Positions 21-59,201 of a DNA stretch of 64,000 nucleotides are shown in pieces. Position numbers and translations under genes: made by a program. Position 1 is the first letter of the stretch. The number at the start of each line of letters is the position of its first letter. This DNA is from Shigella phage ESh22. Location: the sequence record ON528732; one strand, 5' to 3'. Below the pieces are notes generated by a model. The model saw only the letters and a program-made list of their open reading frames with translations, searched no databases and had not been told where the DNA came from.

Positions 21-98
21 TGGTGTTCCAAGACGGATTCGAACCGTCACTAATACAAGGTTTGAGCTTGCATCCTCTGCCAATTGGGATACTGGAAC
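21..98 (-). tRNA. tRNA, isotype undetermined (anticodon loop reads CAA but D-arm is atypical)
   Basis: Minus-strand T-arm GACGG-TTCGAAT-CCGTC, 7-bp acceptor pairing (GTTCCAG/TTGGAAC), encoded CCA. Confidence 0.6.
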
Positions 99-99
99 T

Positions 100-174
100 T
101 GGTACTCGCTGAAGGACTTGAACCTTCTTCACCAACTTGTAAGGATGGGGCTTTACCATATAAACTAAGCGAGC
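100..174 (-). tRNA. tRNA-Val (anticodon UAC)
   Basis: T-arm GGTTCAAGTCC, acceptor GCTCGCT/AGCGAGT, CCA encoded, loop CTTACAA. Confidence 0.7.
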
Positions 175-268
175 TTTAAAGAGGTCTGAAGTTGTGCCGC
201 TAACTCAACTCCGTGGAATTTGTTACGGTCTTCAGTTGACTCAAGCGGTCTTTCACTTGACCTCAAAT

Positions 269-345
269 TGGTGCTGCTCACAGGACTTGAACCCGCATCT
301 CCATCCTTACAAGGGATGTGTAATAGCCAATTATACGAAAGCAGC
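269..345 (-). tRNA. tRNA-Thr (anticodon UGU)
   Basis: T-arm GGTTCAAGTCC, acceptor GCTGCTT/GAGCAGC, CCA encoded, anticodon stem CATCC/GGATG with loop CTTGTAA. Confidence 0.7.
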
Positions 346-351
346 ATTATT

Positions 352-426
352 TGGAGCATCCAGAGGGAATCGAACCCTCAACCTCAGTTTGGAAGACTGT
401 AATTTTCCCGTTTAAACTATGGATGC
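352..426 (-). tRNA. tRNA-Gly (anticodon UCC)
   Basis: T-arm GGTTCGATTCC, acceptor GCATCCA/TGGATGC, CCA encoded, loop CTTCCAA. Confidence 0.7.
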
Positions 427-432
427 ACTAAT

Positions 433-508
433 TGGTGGAGAAGCAGGGAATTGAACCCTGTACTTAAGTTTGCAAAACTTATGTTTTAACCATGTAAACT
501 ACATCCCC
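433..508 (-). tRNA. tRNA-Ala (anticodon UGC)
   Basis: T-arm GGTTCAATTCC, acceptor GGGGATG/CTTCTCC (one mismatch), CCA encoded, anticodon stem TAAGT/ACTTA with loop TTTGCAA. Confidence 0.65.
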
Positions 509-514
509 GATATT

Positions 515-590
515 TGGTACAGGTGGAGGGAATTGAACCCATCATCTTACTGATTAAGAGTCAGCCGCATAACCATTTTGCTACACCTGC
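515..590 (-). tRNA. tRNA-Lys (anticodon CUU)
   Basis: T-arm GGTTCAATTCC, acceptor GCAGGTG/CACCTGT, CCA encoded, loop CTCTTAA. Confidence 0.7.
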
Positions 591-597
591 ACTAATT

Positions 598-675
598 TGG
601 TGGGAGACAAGGGATTCGAACCCTCAAACACCAACTTCTAAGGATGGTAGGTTTACCAATTACCGTCAATCTCCC
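598..675 (-). tRNA. tRNA, isotype undetermined (loop reads UAG but D-arm is atypical)
   Basis: T-arm GGTTCGAATCC, acceptor GGGAGAT/GTCTCCC, CCA encoded. Confidence 0.6.
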
Positions 676-922
676 ATTAAATCTTTGTAGAGAGCTTCCA
701 AGACTCCAAAGCAACAATGGTATATTATGCCTTGAAAACTCTCTAAAAAGACCTAAACAGTCTTTATATAGTCTTATTCAATCCGGTGACTAGAACCTTT
801 GGAGAGCTTGATACTATCTCTTCTCCGTGACACCTACTAGGTGCTTTATAGTCGTGCCGTGTACGCCAATACACGAGTAAAAACCGAGCTTGTTCGACGA
901 GCGCGGGAATTAAATCTTATTA

Positions 923-1009
923 GGCGGTAAGTAAAGGAGTCGAACCCTCACCGTATCTCTACAGTGGCAACTGTTTTCAAGACAGTTTGGCTACCATTAG
1001 CCGCTACCT
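923..1009 (-). tRNA. Type-II tRNA-like gene, Ser(UGA)-like anticodon arm, weak acceptor pairing; possibly degenerate
   Basis: T-arm GAGGG-TTCGACT-CCTTT, anticodon stem ACTGT/ACAGT with loop CTTGAAA, long variable region, no encoded CCA, only about 5 bp acceptor pairing. Confidence 0.4.
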
Positions 1010-1025
1010 ACCCCTAATGAGACTT

Positions 1026-1108
1026 TGGCATGGGACGGAGGAATCGAACCCCTTTGAGTAAGTTTTGGAGGCTTACGCACATGCCTTAGTGTCTTAACAT
1101 CGTCCCAT
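1026..1108 (-). tRNA. tRNA, 83 nt with extended D region; anticodon uncertain (possibly CCA/Trp)
   Basis: T-arm GGTTCGATTCC, perfect acceptor ATGGGAC/GTCCCAT, CCA encoded. Confidence 0.5.
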
Positions 1109-1268
1109 ACTATAATTCGAAGCTTACCGTATTATCACAACACTGTCAAGCCCCTTCTCAGATTATTTACATGTTCTGGAAAACATGAGATACAGACCAC
1201 CTCCTTATGAGATTGACTCTTTCAAGTCAATGCGGAGACCCATAAAGGTCGTCGTAGTAATCTGCTAA

Positions 1269-1616
1269 CTAATATTTTGCATGTCTTATTCTGTGGCAAT
1301 TTGCACAAAGTAACACACATTTATCAAGTTCATCCTTCAACTCTTTAGAGAATTTTAGGCTTTTCCTTCTACCAATACTAAAATCTTTTTCTGAAGGATT
1401 TAAATGATGAAAGTCATACACTGCCGGATGATACCTTTTACCACAATCGTAACATACACCACCTTTATACTCTATTGCGAGTATCTTTAAGTTTCTCTGT
1501 CTTTCGATTGTTTGCTCATTGACACACTGTTTACAGTATGAATGAGTCATCTTACCATCTTTCATGTAGAAATCATTATCATCCTTGTTCAGTTTACACT
1601 TTATACAAGTTCTCAT
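1269..1616 (-). CDS. HNH homing endonuclease embedded in the tRNA array
   Basis: 115 aa ORF; Cys-rich N-terminus (CxxC, CxxC) and C-terminal HNH-like motif YDFHHLNP...CVLLCANCHRIRH. Confidence 0.6.
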   Translation of the reverse strand: MRTCIKCKLNKDDNDFYMKDGKMTHSYCKQCVNEQTIERQRNLKILAIEYKGGVCYDCGKRYHPAVYDFHHLNPSEKDFSIGRRKSLKFSKELKDELDKCVLLCANCHRIRHAKY

Positions 1617-1631
1617 GATTTCATCCTAAAT

Positions 1632-1707
1632 TGGCACTCCGTATAGGACTCGAACCTATATATGAACTGTTTAGAAGACAGTTGCCTATCCTTTAGACTA
1701 ACGGAGC
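1632..1707 (-). tRNA. tRNA-Arg (anticodon UCU)
   Basis: T-arm GGTTCGAGTCC, acceptor GCTCCGT/ACGGAGT, CCA encoded, anticodon stem ACTGT/ACAGT with loop CTTCTAA. Confidence 0.7.
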
Positions 1708-1984
1708 ATTAACATTTTAAAGAGCACTCATTGCATTTAAGCCAAGCCCCATAAGGGATGCTCTTTAGAATGTTGCCCACTTTATTAATCATACCGTGGG
1801 CTAGTACGCCAAATTCTTTAACAGGGAGTTGGAATACCCTGCTGGTGTTTAGCCTATTAAGCTACTGCCAGAAAAACATTATCGTTTGCATTTATTTTTA
1901 AGTTTTTAAAATAGACGCTACGCTAACGAAAACTAAGGTTATCTTAAAGTGGTCACATCTGAAATGTCAACAACTTTATGAAAT

Positions 1985-2059
1985 TGGTTGTAGGTGAGGG
2001 TATCGAACCCTCTTCTAACGGTTATCAGCCGTTTGCATTACCATTTATGCTAACCCACA
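1985..2059 (-). tRNA. tRNA-Ile (anticodon GAU)
   Basis: T-arm GGTTCGATACC, acceptor TGTGGGT/ACCTACA, CCA encoded, anticodon stem AACGG/CCGTT with loop CTGATAA. Confidence 0.65.
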
Positions 2060-2061
2060 AT

Positions 2062-2138
2062 TGGAGGTTCAGGTGGGAATCGAACCCACATTCATAGGGC
2101 TTATGAGACCCTTGCATTACCTTATCTGCGACTGAACC
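2062..2138 (-). tRNA. tRNA-Met (anticodon CAU; could be elongator Met or Ile2)
   Basis: T-arm GGTTCGATTCC, acceptor GGTTCAG/CTGAACC, CCA encoded, loop CTCATAA. Confidence 0.65.
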
Positions 2139-2142
2139 ATTT

Positions 2143-2218
2143 TGGTAGAAGTGGAGGGATTCGAACCCATCGCCTGTCAGATTAAAAGTCTGCCGCATCA
2201 CCATTCTGCTACACTTCC
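2143..2218 (-). tRNA. tRNA-Lys (anticodon UUU)
   Basis: T-arm GGTTCGAATCC, acceptor GGAAGTG/CACTTCT, CCA encoded, loop CTTTTAA. Confidence 0.7.
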
Positions 2219-2639
2219 ATTAAATCATCTTTGCAGTAACCTACGCAAACCTTGCTAAAGGGTTTGTAGAGTTATCTCTTAGTAAGCTAATCTAGAATCA
2301 TGCTCAAGAGATTCATCGGCACTCATGGGACGATATATTAGCTCCATAAGTCACTGCAAAGAGGATTACCAGACCGTATCATCTTAAGTGCTACCATTAC
2401 ACCAACACGCCGTAACGTGTGAAGGAATCGAACCTTCTCCCTTTCTTTTATAGAGAATTAGATTGTTTAAATTGCTGTAAACGGTCTTCTGTAAATTTGT
2501 TGGAACCAGACCAAGTTTTAAATTTTTCAAATTAATTGGCTTGAAATATTTTTGTTGCTTGCTGAATTTGGTCTTCTGCTCCTTTAAAGAATACTCACAA
2601 GAACTCTTTAAGGGAGGGGCTAAAAAGCCCTCTCAAATT

Positions 2640-2717
2640 TGGCGGTTACGAAGGGATTCGAACCCTCATCATCCTCCGTGACAGGGAGGTATTTTAACCA
2701 GATTAAACTACATAACC
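2640..2717 (-). tRNA. tRNA-Asp (anticodon GUC)
   Basis: T-arm GGTTCGAATCC, acceptor GGTTATG/CGTAACC, CCA encoded, anticodon stem CCTCC/GGAGG with loop CTGTCAC. Confidence 0.75.
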
Positions 2718-2723
2718 TTTATT

Positions 2724-2811
2724 TGGTGCGCCGTGAAGGAGTCGAACCTACCGAGTCGTAATGACAAGCGATTTACAGTCGCCACCGCTTCCATCTACGG
2801 GATAACGACGC
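2724..2811 (-). tRNA. tRNA-Tyr (anticodon GUA), type II
   Basis: 88 nt with long variable arm, T-arm GGTTCGACTCC, acceptor GCGTCGT/ACGGCGC, CCA encoded, loop CTGTAAA. Confidence 0.7.
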
Positions 2812-2821
2812 ATTTAAATTT

Positions 2822-2898
2822 TGGCGGTTAGTCAGGGATTCGAACCCTGTGCCATTCGGTTAACAGCCGACCGCACATGCCTTATGTGCTTCCTAACC
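2822..2898 (-). tRNA. tRNA-Asn (anticodon GUU)
   Basis: T-arm GGTTCGAATCC, acceptor GGTTAGG/ACTAACC, CCA encoded, loop CTGTTAA. Confidence 0.65.
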
Positions 2899-2981
2899 GT
2901 GTTTAACATTACCAGACCGTATTCATTTTAATTTTCCGATAAAATTGTTTTTAAATTGCTGTAAACGGTCTTCTGTAAATT

Positions 2982-3058
2982 TGGAGGCGGGTGTTGGAGT
3001 CGAACCAACCGTTACCATGCTAATGAGACATGTGAGACGCCCTTTCTCTATACCCGCG
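2982..3058 (-). tRNA. tRNA with CAU anticodon (Met, fMet or Ile2); 1-72 mismatch
   Basis: T-arm GGTTCGACTCC, acceptor CGCGGGT/ACCCGCC with unpaired position 1, CCA encoded, loop CTCATTA. Confidence 0.55.
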
Positions 3059-3143
3059 ATTCTTAATGACCAGACCAAGCTTTTTATGTTTTCTATGCGC
3101 GAAAAGTAAAAGTTGTTTGCTGTATTTGGTCTTCTGTCAAATT

Positions 3144-3221
3144 TGGCGTTCCAGAAGGGACTTGAACCCTCAAAACTCCACATTGAAAGTGTGGTGACTT
3201 TACCAATTTGTCTACTGGAAC
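3144..3221 (-). tRNA. tRNA-Glu (anticodon UUC)
   Basis: T-arm GGTTCAAGTCC, perfect acceptor GTTCCAG/CTGGAAC, CCA encoded, anticodon stem CCACA/TGTGG with loop CTTTCAA. Confidence 0.75.
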
Positions 3222-3227
3222 ATAATT

Positions 3228-3307
3228 TGGTCTCCGTTGAAGGATTTGAACCCTCGACCCCTTGCTCCCAAAGCAAGTGCTGCTAAACCAAACTGAGCTA
3301 AACGGAG
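3228..3307 (-). tRNA. tRNA-Pro (anticodon UGG)
   Basis: T-arm GGTTCAAATCC, acceptor CTCCGTT/AACGGAG, CCA encoded, D-arm GCTCAGTTTGG, anticodon stem CTTGC/GCAAG with loop TTTGGGA. Confidence 0.7.
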
Positions 3308-5589: not shown

Positions 5590-5751
5590 ATGAGAAAACT
5601 AACAAAGAAGAAAAAGGGTAATAATACCAATCACTGTAAGGAATCAAAACGTGTGGAAGCAATCCACTATACATCCTCTGAAATTGGTTTGTACCTATAT
5701 TTTCAAAATTATAGACGACAAGAGGATTACTTATGTGTAGCTCCCAATTAG
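5590..5751 (+). CDS. small hypothetical protein (53 aa)
   Basis: ATG at 5590 preceded by AAGGAGA Shine-Dalgarno 6 nt upstream; overlaps track ORF 5733..5966. Confidence 0.3.
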   Translation: MRKLTKKKKGNNTNHCKESKRVEAIHYTSSEIGLYLYFQNYRRQEDYLCVAPN

Positions 5752-5959
5752 AAATCACAGATATTATTGATTTGTACCAAACTGCAAAGAGTCATGGGTA
5801 TATAGCTTCGATTGGTAAGAATAAGCACTATGATGCTTTAACTGGTATGTATTTCAGAGCTATCGCTCAATCTAGTGAACAAGTGTTAATGGTTTCTTCC
5901 AGTGAATTTGCTTCATTTCTCTATTGCAGCAAGATTATTAACCGCAGGAGAACAGGTAA

Positions 5960-12665: not shown

Positions 12666-12964
12666 CTATGACTCCACAATCCAGAGGTGTTAAAGGTATC
12701 CATCCTCCAAAGGGTGGTTGGAAAGATAATACTTTCTATGTTGTTGAAGTTGCTTACAAACCACTTAACATGATTCATAAAGCAATGTTCTACACTGGAT
12801 TCTGTGATGAAAAAGGTGTGCCACAAGGTTATAACTGGCTTATGAATGGTGGTTATGAAGACCTTTGCAGCATCCAAGAGGCTTATTACTTGAAAGCAGT
12901 TGCAGAGTTACCTGAAGAGTTTCAAATTGAGAGAGATGAGGATTGGAACGATGAAGAGTGTTAA
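12662..12964 (+). CDS. hypothetical protein
   Basis: 100 aa ORF. Confidence 0.45.
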   Translation: MTMTPQSRGVKGIHPPKGGWKDNTFYVVEVAYKPLNMIHKAMFYTGFCDEKGVPQGYNWLMNGGYEDLCSIQEAYYLKAVAELPEEFQIERDEDWNDEEC

Positions 12965-13385
12965 AGAGGTAGTACGTAAAGCTCTACTTAACAATGGAAC
13001 TAAAGACGATATGTATAAAGATATCGTTGCAGAATTTGGTTGTTCAAGACATGCTGCAAAGGTTCTTCTACATAGCTTTATCTGGGAGTGTTCAGAAGCT
13101 TACATGCAATCTGTAATAACTGAAGGGCTTGATATGTCTCTACCTGAACGCTTCAAAGAAGAGACTGAAGATAGCTCCATAAAGCTAAACACACTCTATA
13201 TTGTAGAAACCATTGGTACAGGTGAACCAGTAGGTACAATACTTATTGAAAGTGGGTGTAATGGTAAGTTTATTGGTTATGGTGAAGCAAACGCATATAG
13301 TGCATTCTCAACCGCACACTGGATAGTTGAAAATGATGGGTATATTCAGGTCAATGGTAAAAATACTTTCAAACTTAAGATGTGA
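12951..13385 (+). CDS. hypothetical protein
   Basis: Track ORF 12900..13385; start moved to ATG at 12951 overlapping upstream stop. Confidence 0.4.
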   Translation: MKSVKEVVRKALLNNGTKDDMYKDIVAEFGCSRHAAKVLLHSFIWECSEAYMQSVITEGLDMSLPERFKEETEDSSIKLNTLYIVETIGTGEPVGTILIESGCNGKFIGYGEANAYSAFSTAHWIVENDGYIQVNGKNTFKLKM

Positions 13386-14053: not shown

Positions 14054-15700
14054 GAACTACATAGCCCCTTAATATGGATTCGATAGAATCTATCTCATAG
14101 GGGCTTTTTATTGAGTAAAATTTACGAAATTTATATTTCTTATAAAATTTGGATTCACTCCGTTCATCTTGGGTCACCATGATATGTGATAAAATATCAA
14201 TACCCTCTTCAACAACCTATCTAAGCATACTCTCTATATAGTATTATATAGTATCTATATAGCCTCTTAGTCCCTATCTAGTGAAACTATATAGCCCCTT
14301 CTAAATAGCCCTTTATAAAGCTCTCTAACAAGCCCTCTTCCACACCTATACAATCACCTTCCTAGCTTCTCCATAGCCCCTTAGAAGCCCCTATATCCAT
14401 CTTAATCTCTATGTTAAGGATGATACCCTCTATAGATGGTTCACTAGGGTCAACTAAGCCTCTATATAGACTGTTATATAACACTAAACAGGTATTCCCT
14501 GTAAAGGCTTATCCTACAAGGTCTAACACGTTACTAACAAGATATCTTATAAGCCTGTTATTACCTGTTTTATAGAAGATAGTGTATAGATAGTTATTCA
14601 GTTCTATAAAATTTTTATAAAATAGACTAGGTAGGTCACTTTTTAGGTTCTTGGGAGTATCTGAAAAATATCTACAAAGGGTGTATATCTGCTTGGTAGC
14701 CCTTAACAGCCCTGTAACATCCCCTTTGCAGTTTTTTAAAATATCATTAACAATTTCTTTACAACTCTAACAAGTCTCTAACAAGTCTCCATAGTTCTTA
14801 ACAATCCCTTAATAGTTCTAACAAGGATGTAACAAGAGTTTAACAGTTCTTACAAGGGTCTAACAAACTACTAACAAGTCCCTAACATGTTAAATTTAAA
14901 AGTTATTTTGTTAAGATTATTAACAAGTGTCTATTAAGTTCTTAACATGTTTAACAGTTTATTAACATGGTCACTACCTCTTGGTCTATAGTTCCCTATC
15001 CCTCTCAGTGATTCTCTAAACAGCCCTCTTAAAAGCCCTGTATAGCTCTATGTAGCCTCTTCTAAGGTTCTTCCTAGTATCTATACCCCAATTACCTGTA
15101 TAGCTCTTTATAGCCCTTTACAGGGGCTTATATAGGTACTTCAAAGAGCCTAACAAGGTTGTAACGTAGTCTTAACAGAGATTTAACAAGGTGCTAACAA
15201 GTTGCTAATAAGCATAACTATGTAGGGATTGTTAAGATTTTGTTAAAGAAATGTTAAGGGGGCTAGCTTTTACGATACTTTTACGTAACTCTTAAGTAAC
15301 TTCATAGCCCCTATAACATACTTCATAACCACTATCAAGCCCCTGTTTAACTATTCACAAGATACTAACGAGATAATAAAGCTTATACCCCTTATAAGAT
15401 TCTTTTAAGGCTCTAGAAAGCTCTATAAAGGGCTTTTAAGAAGTGGTTAATATGATTGCTTAAGATGAGATGATAAGCCCGTATAGAGCGTTATAGAGCG
15501 TTATAGAGATTGCCCTTCCCTTTCGGGTTATGGGCTTATATTTAAGGGAAAAGTTAGTTGATTTGATAAGAGGTTATAGAGTAAGCTATAGAGTTATTAC
15601 TCTAAATGTCTTACAAGGTTCTGGGAAGGGATTTAGTTAGACGTAAAAAAGCCCCATTGAAGGGGCTTGTATAGGGTCTGGGGCTATTTGCCCCGTTGCG
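14054..15700. repeat. ORF-free, repeat-rich, strand-skewed non-coding region (short degenerate repeats TAACAAG, ATAGCCCCT; tandem 10-mer x3 at 15481-15512)
   Basis: No ORF of 60 aa or more in any frame; stop-codon-dense; flanked by convergent transcription units. Confidence 0.6.
15645..15668 (-). terminator. rho-independent terminator ending the minus-strand early block
   Basis: Minus-strand hairpin GCCCCTTCAATGGGGC followed by TTTTTT. Confidence 0.6.
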
Positions 15701-22150: not shown

Positions 22151-22357
22151 TTAAACGTCATAGTAGTAAACTGCTGTATGTCTTGTAAACTGTCTTGTGT
22201 GATTTGTCAAATAACAATCCGACCTGATTGATGTATCAACATACTTGTCATAATCCTTTTCGGATATTCTCTGCCATACATCACAAATAAGCATAAAGAA
22301 ACGGCGCTTTTTAGTCTTGTTATTGTCTACAATCATCAATTGGCGTTGATATAACAT
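22151..22357 (-). CDS. hypothetical early protein
   Basis: 68 aa ORF preceded by conserved leader at 22360-22382. Confidence 0.45.
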   Translation of the reverse strand: MLYQRQLMIVDNNKTKKRRFFMLICDVWQRISEKDYDKYVDTSIRSDCYLTNHTRQFTRHTAVYYYDV

Positions 22358-22544
22358 TTTAGAATCTCCAGTTTAGGATTGTTGGGATTGCTTCCCGTTG
22401 ATGCAAATACTATAAGACTGGTTTTTTAGAGTCAAGCAAATTTTTAAAAATATTTTTGGCATGTTGTGAATGAAACGGGCGCGTACACATAGCACTAAAC
22501 AGAAAACTAGTCAAGAATTATTTTTTAATCCGCTACAAATTTTT

Positions 22545-22800
22545 CTCTTGACTTTTGGGAGGAAGGGGAGTAAGAGGGGGTGGTGGGGCTGGCTGGCTAT
22601 ATCTGGCTACCTGCACAAATTGAAAATGAATTTTCTTGCCCGACCTGATTTTTCTCTGCACAATTTTGAAATGAAAAAGCTCTTTGGAGTTCACCTGCAC
22701 AAATTGAAAATGAATTTTCCCTTTGGAGTTGACTTTGATTTCACTCTACAGATTTCTTTATAGACCTTTATCTGCACGATTTTGAAATGAAAAAGCCCTC
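22545..22800. repeat. G-rich tract followed by four copies of a 22-26 bp iteron-like repeat
   Basis: CCTGCACAAATTGAAAATGAATTTTC at 22610-22635 and 22697-22722; related CTGCACAATTTTGAAATGAAAAAGC at 22647-22673 and 22771-22797. Confidence 0.6.
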
Positions 22801-22862
22801 CTTACCTTGTGTTTGCAAGAACAAGAAAGGCTTACTCTATTGTGAATACTTTACAAAGTTAC

Positions 22863-23657
22863 TTAGTTACGTGCTTCAACAAAGCTAAAACGTTTATCAG
22901 AGATAATCTTATCAGCTTCTTCATGGTCTTGTGCAAGAAGGTAAACACTTGCATTGTCACCAAATGTTACTGCTCTCAAGCAGTGGTCGTGTAACGGGTG
23001 GGTAACTTGAGCGTTACTCAGAGAGTACTTCTCAACCGGAGGGTTACTTTTATGCACCTTACCCTTCCGTTTTACCCGTAGTGTAACTTGATTATCCTTC
23101 ACAACTGCGACACCATCAAAGTGTTGAGGTTCACTGTAGTTGTTCCAACCAACTATGTTATTGGTTAGTCGTCTGTGCATTGTTTCTTCATAGACATAAA
23201 GGTAAACGTCTACATCTTTCATTGTCTGGTTAATGATTGAAGTAACTGCAAAGATATCCAGACCACCAATCCCTGCACAAATCATTGGAAGACCAACCTT
23301 CTTAAGCTGGTTTACTTTGCAGTAGTTGTTAAGACGCTGCAAAGCTGCTTCTAAGGCATTGTAACGTGCATCTTTACCAGTGATAACCTGAGTGTATAGG
23401 TTAGCAATTCGACCCTGCTTGAAACGTGCTACAGAGATATTGCCAAGCATAAGATGTACAGGTTTATGGTTCTCACCACCAACTGTCTCATAAACTTCAG
23501 CGTCAGTCTCATAAGCTTTTGGGTAGCGTTTTGAGATTGTTGCTGCAATACCTGCACCCATCAAGTTCATGCAGTTGCATCCGTGACCAATGATATCAAA
23601 CTTCTGGTTATCAAAGGCTTCAAAGATATCACCTTTAATGATTTTTACAATGCCCAT
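22863..23657 (-). CDS. macro-domain protein, TARG1/DarG-like (candidate ADP-ribose hydrolase)
   Basis: 264 aa; KGDIFEA...DIIGHGCNCMNLMGAGIAATI and VGLPMICAGIGGLDIF recalled as TARG1-type macro-domain motifs; extra C-terminal region of about 110 aa. Confidence 0.6.
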   Translation of the reverse strand: MGIVKIIKGDIFEAFDNQKFDIIGHGCNCMNLMGAGIAATISKRYPKAYETDAEVYETVGGENHKPVHLMLGNISVARFKQGRIANLYTQVITGKDARYNALEAALQRLNNYCKVNQLKKVGLPMICAGIGGLDIFAVTSIINQTMKDVDVYLYVYEETMHRRLTNNIVGWNNYSEPQHFDGVAVVKDNQVTLRVKRKGKVHKSNPPVEKYSLSNAQVTHPLHDHCLRAVTFGDNASVYLLAQDHEEADKIISDKRFSFVEARN

Positions 23658-25868: not shown

Positions 25869-26564
25869 TCAGTTTTTAACTAACATTGTTTTAATGTGTG
25901 GAAGGATTCTTTCGACCTTTGCCACGTTCTTTACTGTATCTTCTATAAAGCATACTACATCATAGTAAGGTAGAATGCAAGACTGAAGCATACGAACTTT
26001 CAAACTTTCTGCACTAATCTCATTGTCACCGAATCCACGCATAAATAGTAGGAAGTCACTGTCTGTGTTCTCATTCAGGAAGAGATGTGTAACCACTCTT
26101 TGTGATTCACCACGAGCAGTTAAGAATCCTATATCAGCATTCTGTGAGATTCCACATAGGATGTTAAAAACATAAGTTGGTTTAGCCCTGTGAGAGTCTA
26201 CCAAGTTTGTGTACTGTGAGTAAGTACCATCATCTAACAAGGTTGCATTAAGACTTTTGTCAAAGCTTGTAAGAACTCCGTCAATATCTGCCAGAACCAT
26301 TTTACGTTTTGCTTCTAAGTCTTTTGCAACTAAGATGAGGCTGTTACGATTTACATACACAGTCTTACCAGTTAGCAAATCTTGACAAGGAATCTTTGTC
26401 ATCGTTGAGTGAAAATCTTCAAAACGACACACAACATATCTTGCTGTATCTGCAAAGTCAGCTTTAACAGTTTCTGACCAGCTTGCAGAACTGATATCTA
26501 AATCCAAAGGTTTGATATCATAAGCATGACACAGCACCTTATCAAATTGTTTTGATTCGCTCAT
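25869..26564 (-). CDS. HAD-superfamily hydrolase-like protein (candidate nucleotide phosphatase)
   Basis: 231 aa; DxDGxLT motif (VLADIDGVLT) after an N-terminal extension of about 85 aa. Confidence 0.4.
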   Translation of the reverse strand: MSESKQFDKVLCHAYDIKPLDLDISSASWSETVKADFADTARYVVCRFEDFHSTMTKIPCQDLLTGKTVYVNRNSLILVAKDLEAKRKMVLADIDGVLTSFDKSLNATLLDDGTYSQYTNLVDSHRAKPTYVFNILCGISQNADIGFLTARGESQRVVTHLFLNENTDSDFLLFMRGFGDNEISAESLKVRMLQSCILPYYDVVCFIEDTVKNVAKVERILPHIKTMLVKN

Positions 26565-27090
26565 ATTTTACCTTTTTAATGTTTGTTGCAAACTCACATT
26601 GAGCAAGCAGTTGCATGTTATTGTACACGTCTTGAGAGTATTGTCTAGCCTTTGGAATCTTATATTTGTAACCAGCATTATAAGATGCTAAGACACGCTT
26701 CATAGAATACTTTCCATTTGGGTGACCATGTACATTTGTCCAGAAAAGAAGTTCCTTGTGAGCCTCTTTAGCTGAGTAATGGAAATCACTGATAAGCTTT
26801 CTCTTTGCAACGTTAGGTGAAATCTTGTTACGCTTTACAACAGTCTTCAAATGATTCTGGAACACTCCATAATCGTGAGTCTTTTTATTAACAACCTTGA
26901 CACCTAATTGTGACTCTTGTAAGGCTATAGCTGCTAATGGGATTCCCCAACCTTGTCCCATCTCTTTCTCGCCATAATTGTAAGCCTTTAACATGTTAAC
27001 TTTCTGGCTAATTGTTAGTTCTGGACAATCTGACGCTGTAGCAACCTGTGCTGTTAATAATAAGCACAAACCTAAAATGAATTTCTTCAT
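26542..27090 (-). CDS. secreted lytic transglycosylase (SLT domain)
   Basis: Track ORF 26542..27114; start moved to ATG at 27090 with AGGAGA RBS; signal peptide; ALQESQ catalytic motif, YNAGY. Confidence 0.6.
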   Translation of the reverse strand: MKKFILGLCLLLTAQVATASDCPELTISQKVNMLKAYNYGEKEMGQGWGIPLAAIALQESQLGVKVVNKKTHDYGVFQNHLKTVVKRNKISPNVAKRKLISDFHYSAKEAHKELLFWTNVHGHPNGKYSMKRVLASYNAGYKYKIPKARQYSQDVYNNMQLLAQCEFATNIKKVKYERIKTI

Positions 27091-27151
27091 TGGGTCTCCT
27101 ATTTTGTTAAACATGCAGACAATTATACACCATCCTGCACATTTTTCAAAT

Positions 27152-27176
27152 AAAAAAGGCTGCCGAAGCAGCCCTT
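27152..27176 (-). terminator. rho-independent terminator after rIIB-like gene
   Basis: Minus-strand hairpin GGGCTGCTTCGGCAGCC followed by TTTTTTATTT. Confidence 0.6.
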
Positions 27177-58709: not shown

Positions 58710-58909
58710 AAAAGAACATCTGTAGAATCGACTATGGTGAAGTTGTTGACGACGATGGAGTAGTTATTTACAGAGTTTGGGCTAAGGATTTTAATACAGT
58801 TGTAGAGGCTCTAGACCACTTCGTCAACGGGACTCGTGAGAATGTAAGAGCAACCAGTATAGATTCCTTAATAGACACTTCGCGTAAACGGAGGAAGAAG
58901 GATGAATAA
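58706..58909 (+). CDS. hypothetical protein
   Basis: 67 aa ORF. Confidence 0.4.
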   Translation: MKKNICRIDYGEVVDDDGVVIYRVWAKDFNTVVEALDHFVNGTRENVRATSIDSLIDTSRKRRKKDE

Positions 58910-59201
58910 AGTCTTCGACCCTTATGCACCCCAAGATGATTGGGAAGCTGATAGAGAGTCTGAAATGGAAGCATACATAGCTGGAATGGATGTGGATGAG
59001 ATGAAGTTCTATATCTCTGAGAAACTACACATTCACATGAAAAGAAACAATCTATCACAAGTTCAGGTAGCAAAGATTTGTGAGATTTCTCAAGCAAGAG
59101 TTTCAAACATCTTAAACGGTAGCGGTAAAGTTTCTCTTGACTACATGATTAGTGTTTGTGATAAACTTGGTTTAAACTTCAACTTAAGTAAGGCAGATTG
59201 A
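58902..59201 (+). CDS. helix-turn-helix DNA-binding protein
   Basis: 99 aa; HTH-like LSQVQVAKICEISQARVSNILNG. Confidence 0.5.
   Translation: MNKVFDPYAPQDDWEADRESEMEAYIAGMDVDEMKFYISEKLHIHMKRNNLSQVQVAKICEISQARVSNILNGSGKVSLDYMISVCDKLGLNFNLSKAD

Follow-up and report, generated by a model that had tools for sequence, protein, structure and literature searches.

What is the role of four direct repeats that lie between a macro-domain gene and a block of small early genes in a Felix-O1-like phage? The question arises in a 64,000-nucleotide stretch of Shigella phage ESh22 (record ON528732), here called the window, which belongs to a Mooglevirus-like phage of the Ounavirinae. Over positions 22300-22900 it is 98.7% identical to Shigella phage ESh21 (Mooglevirus) and about 80% identical to some 180 Felix-O1-like phages. 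A non-coding control region of 505 bp (22358-22862) separates the macro-domain gene (22863-23657, minus strand, Pfam Macro) from the first small early gene (22151-22357, minus strand). An initial annotation had put the repeats past the macro-domain gene and ahead of the first early promoter, which holds true since both neighboring genes are encoded on the minus strand. Read in gene direction, the order is macro gene, terminator, four repeats, C-rich tract, promoters and first small gene.

All four copies face one direction and lie on the minus strand: R1 (22773-22796, GGGCTTTTT-TCATTT-CAAAATC-GTGCA), R2 (22696-22719, GGGAAAAT-TCATTT-TCAATTT-GTGCA), R3 (22657-22680, GAGCTTTT-TCATTT-CAAAATT-GTGCA) and R4 (22612-22635, AAGAAAAT-TCATTT-TCAATTT-GTGCA). 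R2 and R4 are identical over 27 nt (ACCTGCACAAATTGAAAATGAATTTTC, at 22693-22719 and 22609-22635), and the related pair, R3 and R1, occupies 27 nt each at 22654-22680 and 22770-22796. The two identical and two related copies described earlier are thus all present, with one member of the identical pair displaced by 3-4 nt from its true position (22693-22719) and one related copy, noted at 22647-22673, shifted by 7 nt. The breaks written into the shared core “CTGCACAA-TTGAAA-ATGAA” are unnecessary, since the two repeat types are of equal length and differ by substitutions only, without gaps. The gene-strand consensus is a purine-rich block ending in G, followed by N-W5-TCATTT-N7-GTGCA, where the five bases 5' of TCATTT form a T-tract in R1 and R3 and an A-tract in R2 and R4. 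Each site is asymmetric, not palindromic, spans about 24-30 bp, and contains three conserved blocks (the purine-rich block ending in G at -6, TCATTT and GTGCA) that are spaced by about one helical turn. The start-to-start spacings in the window are 45, 39 and 77 bp.

The four-repeat array is real and beyond chance. A 20-mer query with at most 3 mismatches gave 3 matches against 0.02 expected, a 24-mer query 3 against 0.00, and the bipartite core TCATTT-N7-GTGC occurs five times in the 64 kb against 0.1 expected, with four of the five inside the array. Elsewhere in the window, and in the 24 kb of the closest genome that extend beyond it, the bipartite motif is matched only at chance level, a fifth site excepted. 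Comparable repeats are missing where gene clusters diverge, at two junctions in the window, and the site is absent from the 5,426 E. coli genomes searched. No other non-coding element that we found in the window is as conserved.

On the macro-gene side the array adjoins an intrinsic terminator (22794-22832, minus strand; hairpin AAGCC...GGAGGGCT followed by TTTT), the homologue of Felix O1 t13, which is entered in Table 2 of the Felix O1 paper (PMC3185647). The T-tract of this terminator (22791-22794) runs directly into R1. A simple terminator scan missed it because its loop and bulge are too long for the scan; an RNAalifold consensus retains the t13-type hairpin across 15 genomes. On the other side a predicted antisense promoter, P(+), faces the array on the plus strand (22548-22576), with TTGACT at 22548-22553, a 17-nt spacer and TAAGAG at 22571-22576. 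Its hexamers and 17-nt spacing are kept among relatives while the spacer sequence changes, the -10 being TAGCCT or TAGTCT on the alternative allele of this segment; Erwinia phages have TTGAC(G/C)-18-TATACT at this place, and the Hafnia phage and the divergent contig L178 have no recognizable P(+). The predicted promoter P1 lies on the minus strand (22486-22514; TTGACT at 22514-22509, a 17-nt spacer and the extended -10 TGcTATGTG at 22494-22486) and is divergent to P(+), the two -35 hexamers being 33 bp apart. Identity in 16 genomes is 94% for the block that extends from AAAAGTCAAG to the P1 -35. Alignment of relatives revealed a second short motif, GAGAAAAATTTGTAGCG (22531-22547, minus strand), of which a related copy, AAGAAATCTGTAGAG, lies between R1 and R2 (22744-22758); two adjacent copies follow the last repeat in Hafnia, and Erwinia has the similar AGAAAGATTCCTGTAAAT.

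A promoter scan placed a further promoter, P2, at 22407-22435 on the minus strand (TTGACT-17-TAGTAT). It is of the same type as the modules of the early block, where about 19 small genes run on the minus strand from 22357 down to about 15700 (~7 kb, vs ~4 kb in Felix O1) and each gene is preceded by a near-identical cassette with a promoter and a ribosome-binding site, in which the sigma-70 promoter is followed by CCTAAACTGGAGATTCTAAAATG. Some of the early-block promoters carry a GC hairpin within the spacer, reminiscent of the “promoter-early stem-loop” cassettes of T4. Among 18 early-block proteins scanned there was no significant Pfam match and one lone match below the cut-off. A cluster of 18 tRNA genes occupies window positions 21-3307 (minus strand).

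Comparison with relatives indicates that the array is a fixture of the subfamily. In Felixouna-, Moogle-, Susp- and Kolesnikvirus, as well as a Hafnia phage and a divergent IMG/VR contig, three to five copies of one orientation occupy this syntenic position. In Felix O1, typing phage 1, SUSP2, Moogle, Erwinia M7 (Kolesnikvirus) and Hafnia Zyzzx the array comes after the macro-gene terminator and ahead of the first early promoter, and many IMG/VR contigs show the same arrangement. The earlier description of an iteron-like array is supported, the copies being non-coding and of one orientation, and the array is strongly conserved at a single syntenic position across the subfamily. The divergent 88-kb IMG/VR contig L178 has five copies, two of them degenerate, and natural variants with three copies are found in BPS17L1, finno and the genome L043. 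Spacings are nearly fixed within a genus: phages of Escherichia, Salmonella and Citrobacter have 73-77, 39-41 and 45 bp, those of Erwinia 37, 37 and 39 bp.

Among 16 distinct genomes the mean pairwise identity is 99.4% in the core blocks, 78% in N7, 73% in the spacers between repeats and 59% in the adjacent tract. Since the core is at 99.4% and the spacers at 73%, selection acts on the core; on the evidence of the alignments, the array is a phylogenetic footprint, with purifying selection in the core but not in the spacers. A logo built from 69 distinct copies shows essentially no variation in TCATTT and GTGC, and N7 is A/T-rich yet variable there. Also strongly conserved are two positions outside the search pattern, A at +17, present in 66 of the 69 copies, and G at -6, present in 61.

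The array is missing from three metagenomic contigs of distant relatives (L217, L219 and L220, from Logan/NCBI) that keep the two-domain macro protein, and is therefore not indispensable to the genome architecture. In these array-less relatives a strong promoter (TTGACA-17-TAGTAT in L219) directly follows the macro gene and is succeeded by a conserved gene whose product has 94-95 residues. No fold match was obtained for the extra C-terminal domain of the macro protein, and this domain occurs without the array as well. A scan of IMG/VR with a loose pattern returned mostly chance matches, and a two-copy scan of IMG/VR outside the Ounavirinae returned nearly exclusively coding tandem repeats that are unrelated, such as TCATTTGCTAATGGTGC (Ser-Phe-Ala-Asn-Gly-Ala). 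The same two-copy scan yielded one non-coding look-alike, on the 10-kb contig L154.

The G-rich run reported near the repeats does exist, as GGGAGGAAGGGGAGTAAGAGGGGGTGGTGGGGCTGG at 22557-22592 on the plus strand (C-rich on the gene strand), and in this phage it fits a pattern of four G3+ runs separated by N1-7. Its inclusion in one unit with the repeats is unsupported. The tract belongs to a variable segment of ~55 bp (window 22557-22611) that has two unrelated alleles among Felixounaviruses, one C-rich on the gene strand and the other GGTGGGTGCAGGTAGGGATGTCGCCATTTCTCACAAGGCTACC; about half of the Felixounaviruses carry the allele that is not G-rich, and the tract is short in Erwinia and barely present in Hafnia. 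Allele and first downstream gene do not strictly go together, a sign of recombination within the control region. With an identity of 59% the tract is not conserved, so that no reading that depends on it (for example a G-quadruplex, Rho-loading site or R-loop) can account for the conserved feature. At the position of this segment L178 has about ten TTAACA units (in the 5610-5760 region, between the array and the first early promoter) and Hafnia phage Zyzzx (L009) four CTTTACA units, both of them resembling the units of the terminal repeat.

The fifth match to the core lies outside the array, at 27137-27153 on the minus strand (TTATTT-GAAAAAT-GTGC, of the form TTATTT-N7-GTGCAG). Its first bases belong to the rIIB terminator's T-tract, and it overlaps, at -38 to -20, the -35 and spacer of a sigma-70 promoter (TATAAT, 27122-27127). 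This promoter serves the gene at 26542-27090, which encodes a secreted Vs.1-like protein (ORF3 in Felix O1). The site is kept in four genera in all, including Felix O1, Moogle and SUSP2, and its layout is the arrangement that would be expected of a transcription-factor operator.

Previously published expression data from Felix O1 bear on both loci. The RT-PCR amplicon called “ORF14”, which extends from just upstream of R4 into the C-rich tract, reaches its maximum at 25 min, and so does ORF3, the gene that the fifth site precedes; the maximum of ORF13 and ORF16, on either side of the amplicon, is at 5 min (PMC3185647, Table 3 and Supplementary Tables 1 and 3). The RT-PCR was not strand-specific, and as the lower “ORF14” primer covers the -10 of the predicted P(+), the RNA that was detected is not the predicted P(+) transcript.

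From these results we tentatively favor the hypothesis that the array serves as a set of docking sites for a single protein, which would recognize the DNA sequence and affect transcription at this boundary. The hypothesis draws on several lines of evidence: the invariant blocks lie about one turn apart with an A/T-rich spacer between them, orientation is constant and position fixed, the motif is restricted to the array locus and one promoter-overlapping site, and the associated RNAs show middle-phase timing. The putative binder would most likely be phage-encoded. The 505-bp control region places its sites between the terminator of the rIIA...macro-domain operon upstream and the predicted divergent P(+)/P1 pair downstream, a pair at the head of the ~7-kb terminal block of small early (“host-takeover”-type) genes. 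Occupancy of the sites could tune transcription at this boundary, either by blocking or modulating read-through at the terminator that abuts R1, or through control of the adjacent promoters, for example at the early-to-middle switch.

As in an operator array, the core is conserved and the flanks and spacers vary freely (0.994 vs 0.78 for N7 and 0.73 for the spacers), and the sites lie at or beside promoters, the array next to predicted P(+) and P1 and the fifth site on the rIIB-ORF3 promoter. Some features count against an operator. The sites lie 100-300 bp from P1 and not over it, and successive sites are out of helical phase; non-phased spacing is unusual for cooperative operators. The alternative offered by the initial annotation, binding of a regulator at multiple sites, fits better than its first suggestion, a replication origin, but no cognate protein was found. 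An XRE-type protein at 58902-59201, annotated as “transcriptional regulator” in Felix O1, has the only Pfam HTH domain among the proteins scanned and is a candidate binder only by default. XRE-type HTH proteins normally bind palindromes, and the asymmetry of the sites disfavors this one.

Two known regulatory systems offer partial parallels. The C1 repressor of P1 binds 17-bp asymmetric operators that are scattered over the genome. The sites described here are likewise asymmetric and of 17-20 bp, with a cluster at one locus and an isolated copy that overlaps a promoter; unlike C1 operators, the clustered sites lie off the promoters, and the phage is virulent. Middle promoters of T4 combine a MotA box at -30 with a sigma-70 -10 element, and the fifth site is similar in that its motif lies at -38 to -20 relative to a TATAAT promoter, and the gene concerned peaks at 25 min in Felix O1. 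A Hafnia variant of the repeat, GTGCTTAT, resembles the MotA box, TGCTTtA. Most copies in the array, however, have no -10 at a fixed distance, and the Felix O1 paper reports no MotA- or AsiA-like genes and states that the control of temporal transcription is unknown (PMC3185647).

The main rival to protein-binding sites for transcription is a replication origin, in which the repeats would be iterons for a phage initiator, transcription from the divergent promoters would activate or prime replication, and G-rich RNA would aid R-loop formation in this phage. We regard it as the weaker of the two and as unlikely. Iteron origins are well known from lambda ori (four O-protein sites), P1 oriR, iteron plasmids and T4 oriE, and the array resembles them in having three to five direct repeats of ~20 bp, all facing one way, in non-coding DNA close to promoters. 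At least three direct repeats of ~17-22 bp in one orientation are what an iteron array calls for, and the window, apart from the terminal repeat, has no other such array. The promoters immediately adjoin the array, and between P1 and P2, about 130 bp off, there is a conserved stretch rich in A/T, CAAAAATATTTTTAAAA. The phage encodes a T7-like primase-helicase and a family-A DNA polymerase; known origins of such replisomes are coupled to promoters, as in T7 phi1.1A/B and T4 oriF and oriG.

Several other expectations of an origin were not borne out, and the array has no specific support as one. The GC-skew analysis proposed in the initial annotation showed no inflection at 22.6 kb, where cumulative skew runs straight through and tracks gene orientation. 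No perfect DnaA or IHF sites are present, with one-mismatch matches at chance counts, and in place of an unwinding element there is only the short conserved A/T stretch between P1 and P2. Unlike those of iteron origins, the spacings are long, irregular and unphased: neither 37-45 bp (3.5 to 4.3 turns) nor 73-77 bp is a multiple of the helical turn (~10.5-11 bp). No initiator gene was recognized nearby, the neighbors having no significant Pfam match except for the Macro domain, although one of them may be an initiator without a recognizable domain. Natural three-copy variants and array-less relatives also count against an origin, and the version that depends on an R-loop needs a G-rich segment that about half of the Felixounaviruses lack. 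No report of a replication origin in Felix O1 and its relatives was found in the literature searched.

Rather improbable, in our judgment, is an element that works at the level of RNA, with four copies in a read-through transcript or in antisense RNA from P(+) that would bind an RNA-binding protein and serve as a sponge, a processing signal or an antitermination signal. A conserved predicted antisense promoter does read into the array, the region is transcribed in Felix O1 with kinetics unlike those of its neighbors, and both R1 and the fifth site start exactly in the U-tracts of terminators. However, beyond the terminator hairpin there is no conserved secondary structure or covariation on either strand, and searches of Rfam gave no family, the matches being at chance level (E of 0.47 or higher). 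The RNA detected in Felix O1, moreover, is not the P(+) product, and this promoter is not recognizable in Hafnia or L178. Invariant blocks one turn apart with an A/T-rich spacer would also be more typical of recognition of duplex DNA.

A functionless relic, made of duplicated pieces of terminator tails and promoter junctions left behind by cassette recombination, is in our view less probable still. The left half of the T-tract-type repeats (TTTTTCATTT) resembles a generic terminator tail that is common to several terminators of these phages (Felix O1 t2, t5 and t13; window 25361), and hence part of the similarity, the fifth site included, could be due to common descent and not to a shared binder, which also counts against the protein-binding reading. 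The fifth site is a terminator-promoter junction of the same layout, and the early block is made of recombining promoter cassettes. Against a relic, the core is conserved at 99.4% and the sequence between copies at 73%, the copies are retained in six lineages whose flanks are otherwise unalignable, and orientation is constant and copy number nearly so.

Only a small chance is given to the array as a boundary element of the terminal early block, either as a dock that would halt or time DNA entry, by analogy with the injection stop signal (iss) of T5, or as the seed of a silencing that would spread after the early phase. In T5 the iss is an extensive untranslated region of repeats that borders the first-step-transfer DNA on its inner side (Davison, bioRxiv 10.1101/866236), and the array is likewise conserved, repeat-rich, untranslated and located at the inner boundary of a terminal early-gene block. 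In contrast, the iss, part of a 10-kb terminal repeat, combines eight DnaA boxes with inverted repeats and palindromes (bioRxiv 10.1101/866236), while the array has direct repeats only (inverted-repeat matches fall outside it), has no DnaA boxes and lies outside the terminal repeat. Its distance from the terminus also varies between phages, from about 4.6 kb in Felix O1 to about 7.4-8 kb here (about 9% of the genome). The literature searched contains no report of two-step injection in Felix-O1-like phages.

That the array is a packaging or terminus signal, marking the genome end or a terminase recognition site, is very improbable. Short direct terminal repeats are known in Felix-like phages (PMC4837284, PMC8303462), and two records break within the control region with overlaps of 377 bp (KhF1) and 74 bp (TH10). 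The terminal repeat of UAB_Phi87, established at 608 bp by Bal31 digestion and run-off sequencing (PMC4837284, Fig. S1) and aligned here as a 590-nt text copy, maps to window 14693-15255, to Felix O1 12779-13341 and to the end of the Erwinia M7 record. It lies 7.4 kb from the array, which is therefore not the genome end. The KhF1 overlap, furthermore, is just 89.7% identical and looks like an assembly artefact. Two gene blocks converge at the 14693-15255 segment, which contains some 20 short repeats (CTTGTTA(G/A) / CTGTTAAG type), most of them oriented alike, and is likely to be a terminase or end-recognition region.

Some anomalous records also touch this region. Those of KhF1 (KT184313.1, L004/L005) and TH10 (MT446388.1, L006/L007) start and end within the control region, and their breaks are probably assembly break points rather than true termini. 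The 147-kb record of “Staphylococcus phage SA1” (GU169904.1) contains this Felix-O1-like region at 82.5% identity, which suggests a chimeric or contaminated assembly.

Equally little credence is due to a small protein encoded across the repeats, namely ORF14/gp14 in Felix O1 and FO1a or a plus-strand ORF in Moogle and ESh21. Several genomes do have annotated open frames, of 55-110 codons, and two spacings of Felix-like genomes, 39 and 45 bp, are divisible by three. The initial annotation had named a conserved small protein in relatives as the finding that would overturn its proposal, and the comparison speaks against such a protein on both strands: the plus-strand frames of the repeats are 0,0,2,2 in Moogle, 0,0,1,2 in Erwinia and 0,2,0 in Hafnia, and those of the gene strand are equally inconsistent. 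Since the frames differ between genera, the array is non-coding. No start codon, stop or ribosome-binding site is conserved, the position of Felix O1 ORF14 corresponds to a GTG inside the repeat core, and the ends of the ORFs differ between the alleles of the variable segment. RefSeq has dropped ORF14, and the Felix O1 paper lists no homologues of it (PMC3185647). The small ORFs that databases place over the array (ORF14/gp14 and the plus-strand “hypothetical proteins”) are probably wrong and artefacts of gene callers.

Several other candidates were set aside. Intrinsic curvature or phased A-tracts found no support, AA/TT periodicity being at the 32nd-80th percentile and predicted curvature at the 36th-89th in the windows tested, with wedge parameters after Bolshoy et al. 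1991. Chi sites, like DnaA and IHF sites, are at chance level. Inspection by eye gave no convincing consensus match for CRP, Fur, Fis, OmpR, marbox, sigma-54 or sigma-E. The repeats are not sigma-70 promoters themselves, as they have no -10 at a fixed distance, and a TATAxx at +9 follows R1 and R4 in only some genomes.

In conclusion, the array is new as a locus, and its kind, an iteron- or operator-like array of sites, is known. The Felix O1 paper lists other direct repeats and t13, and not the array (PMC3185647); neither the genome paper of UAB_Phi87 (PMC4837284) nor the other literature searched describes it. The essentiality study of Bas63, in the part available, gives scores at the level of genes and nothing on intergenic regions. 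The array is notable mainly for its conservation across the subfamily, nearly invariant from phages of Escherichia, Salmonella and Citrobacter to those of Erwinia and Hafnia, and for the factor that it implies. Felix O1 and its relatives are classic typing phages that are widely used in biocontrol and therapy, and for phage engineering the array is a spot to avoid or to exploit. Its four copies of TCATTT-N7-GTGCA constitute a defined DNA bait for a regulator or an initiator, at a locus that marks the junction of the rII/macro operon and the early host-takeover block.
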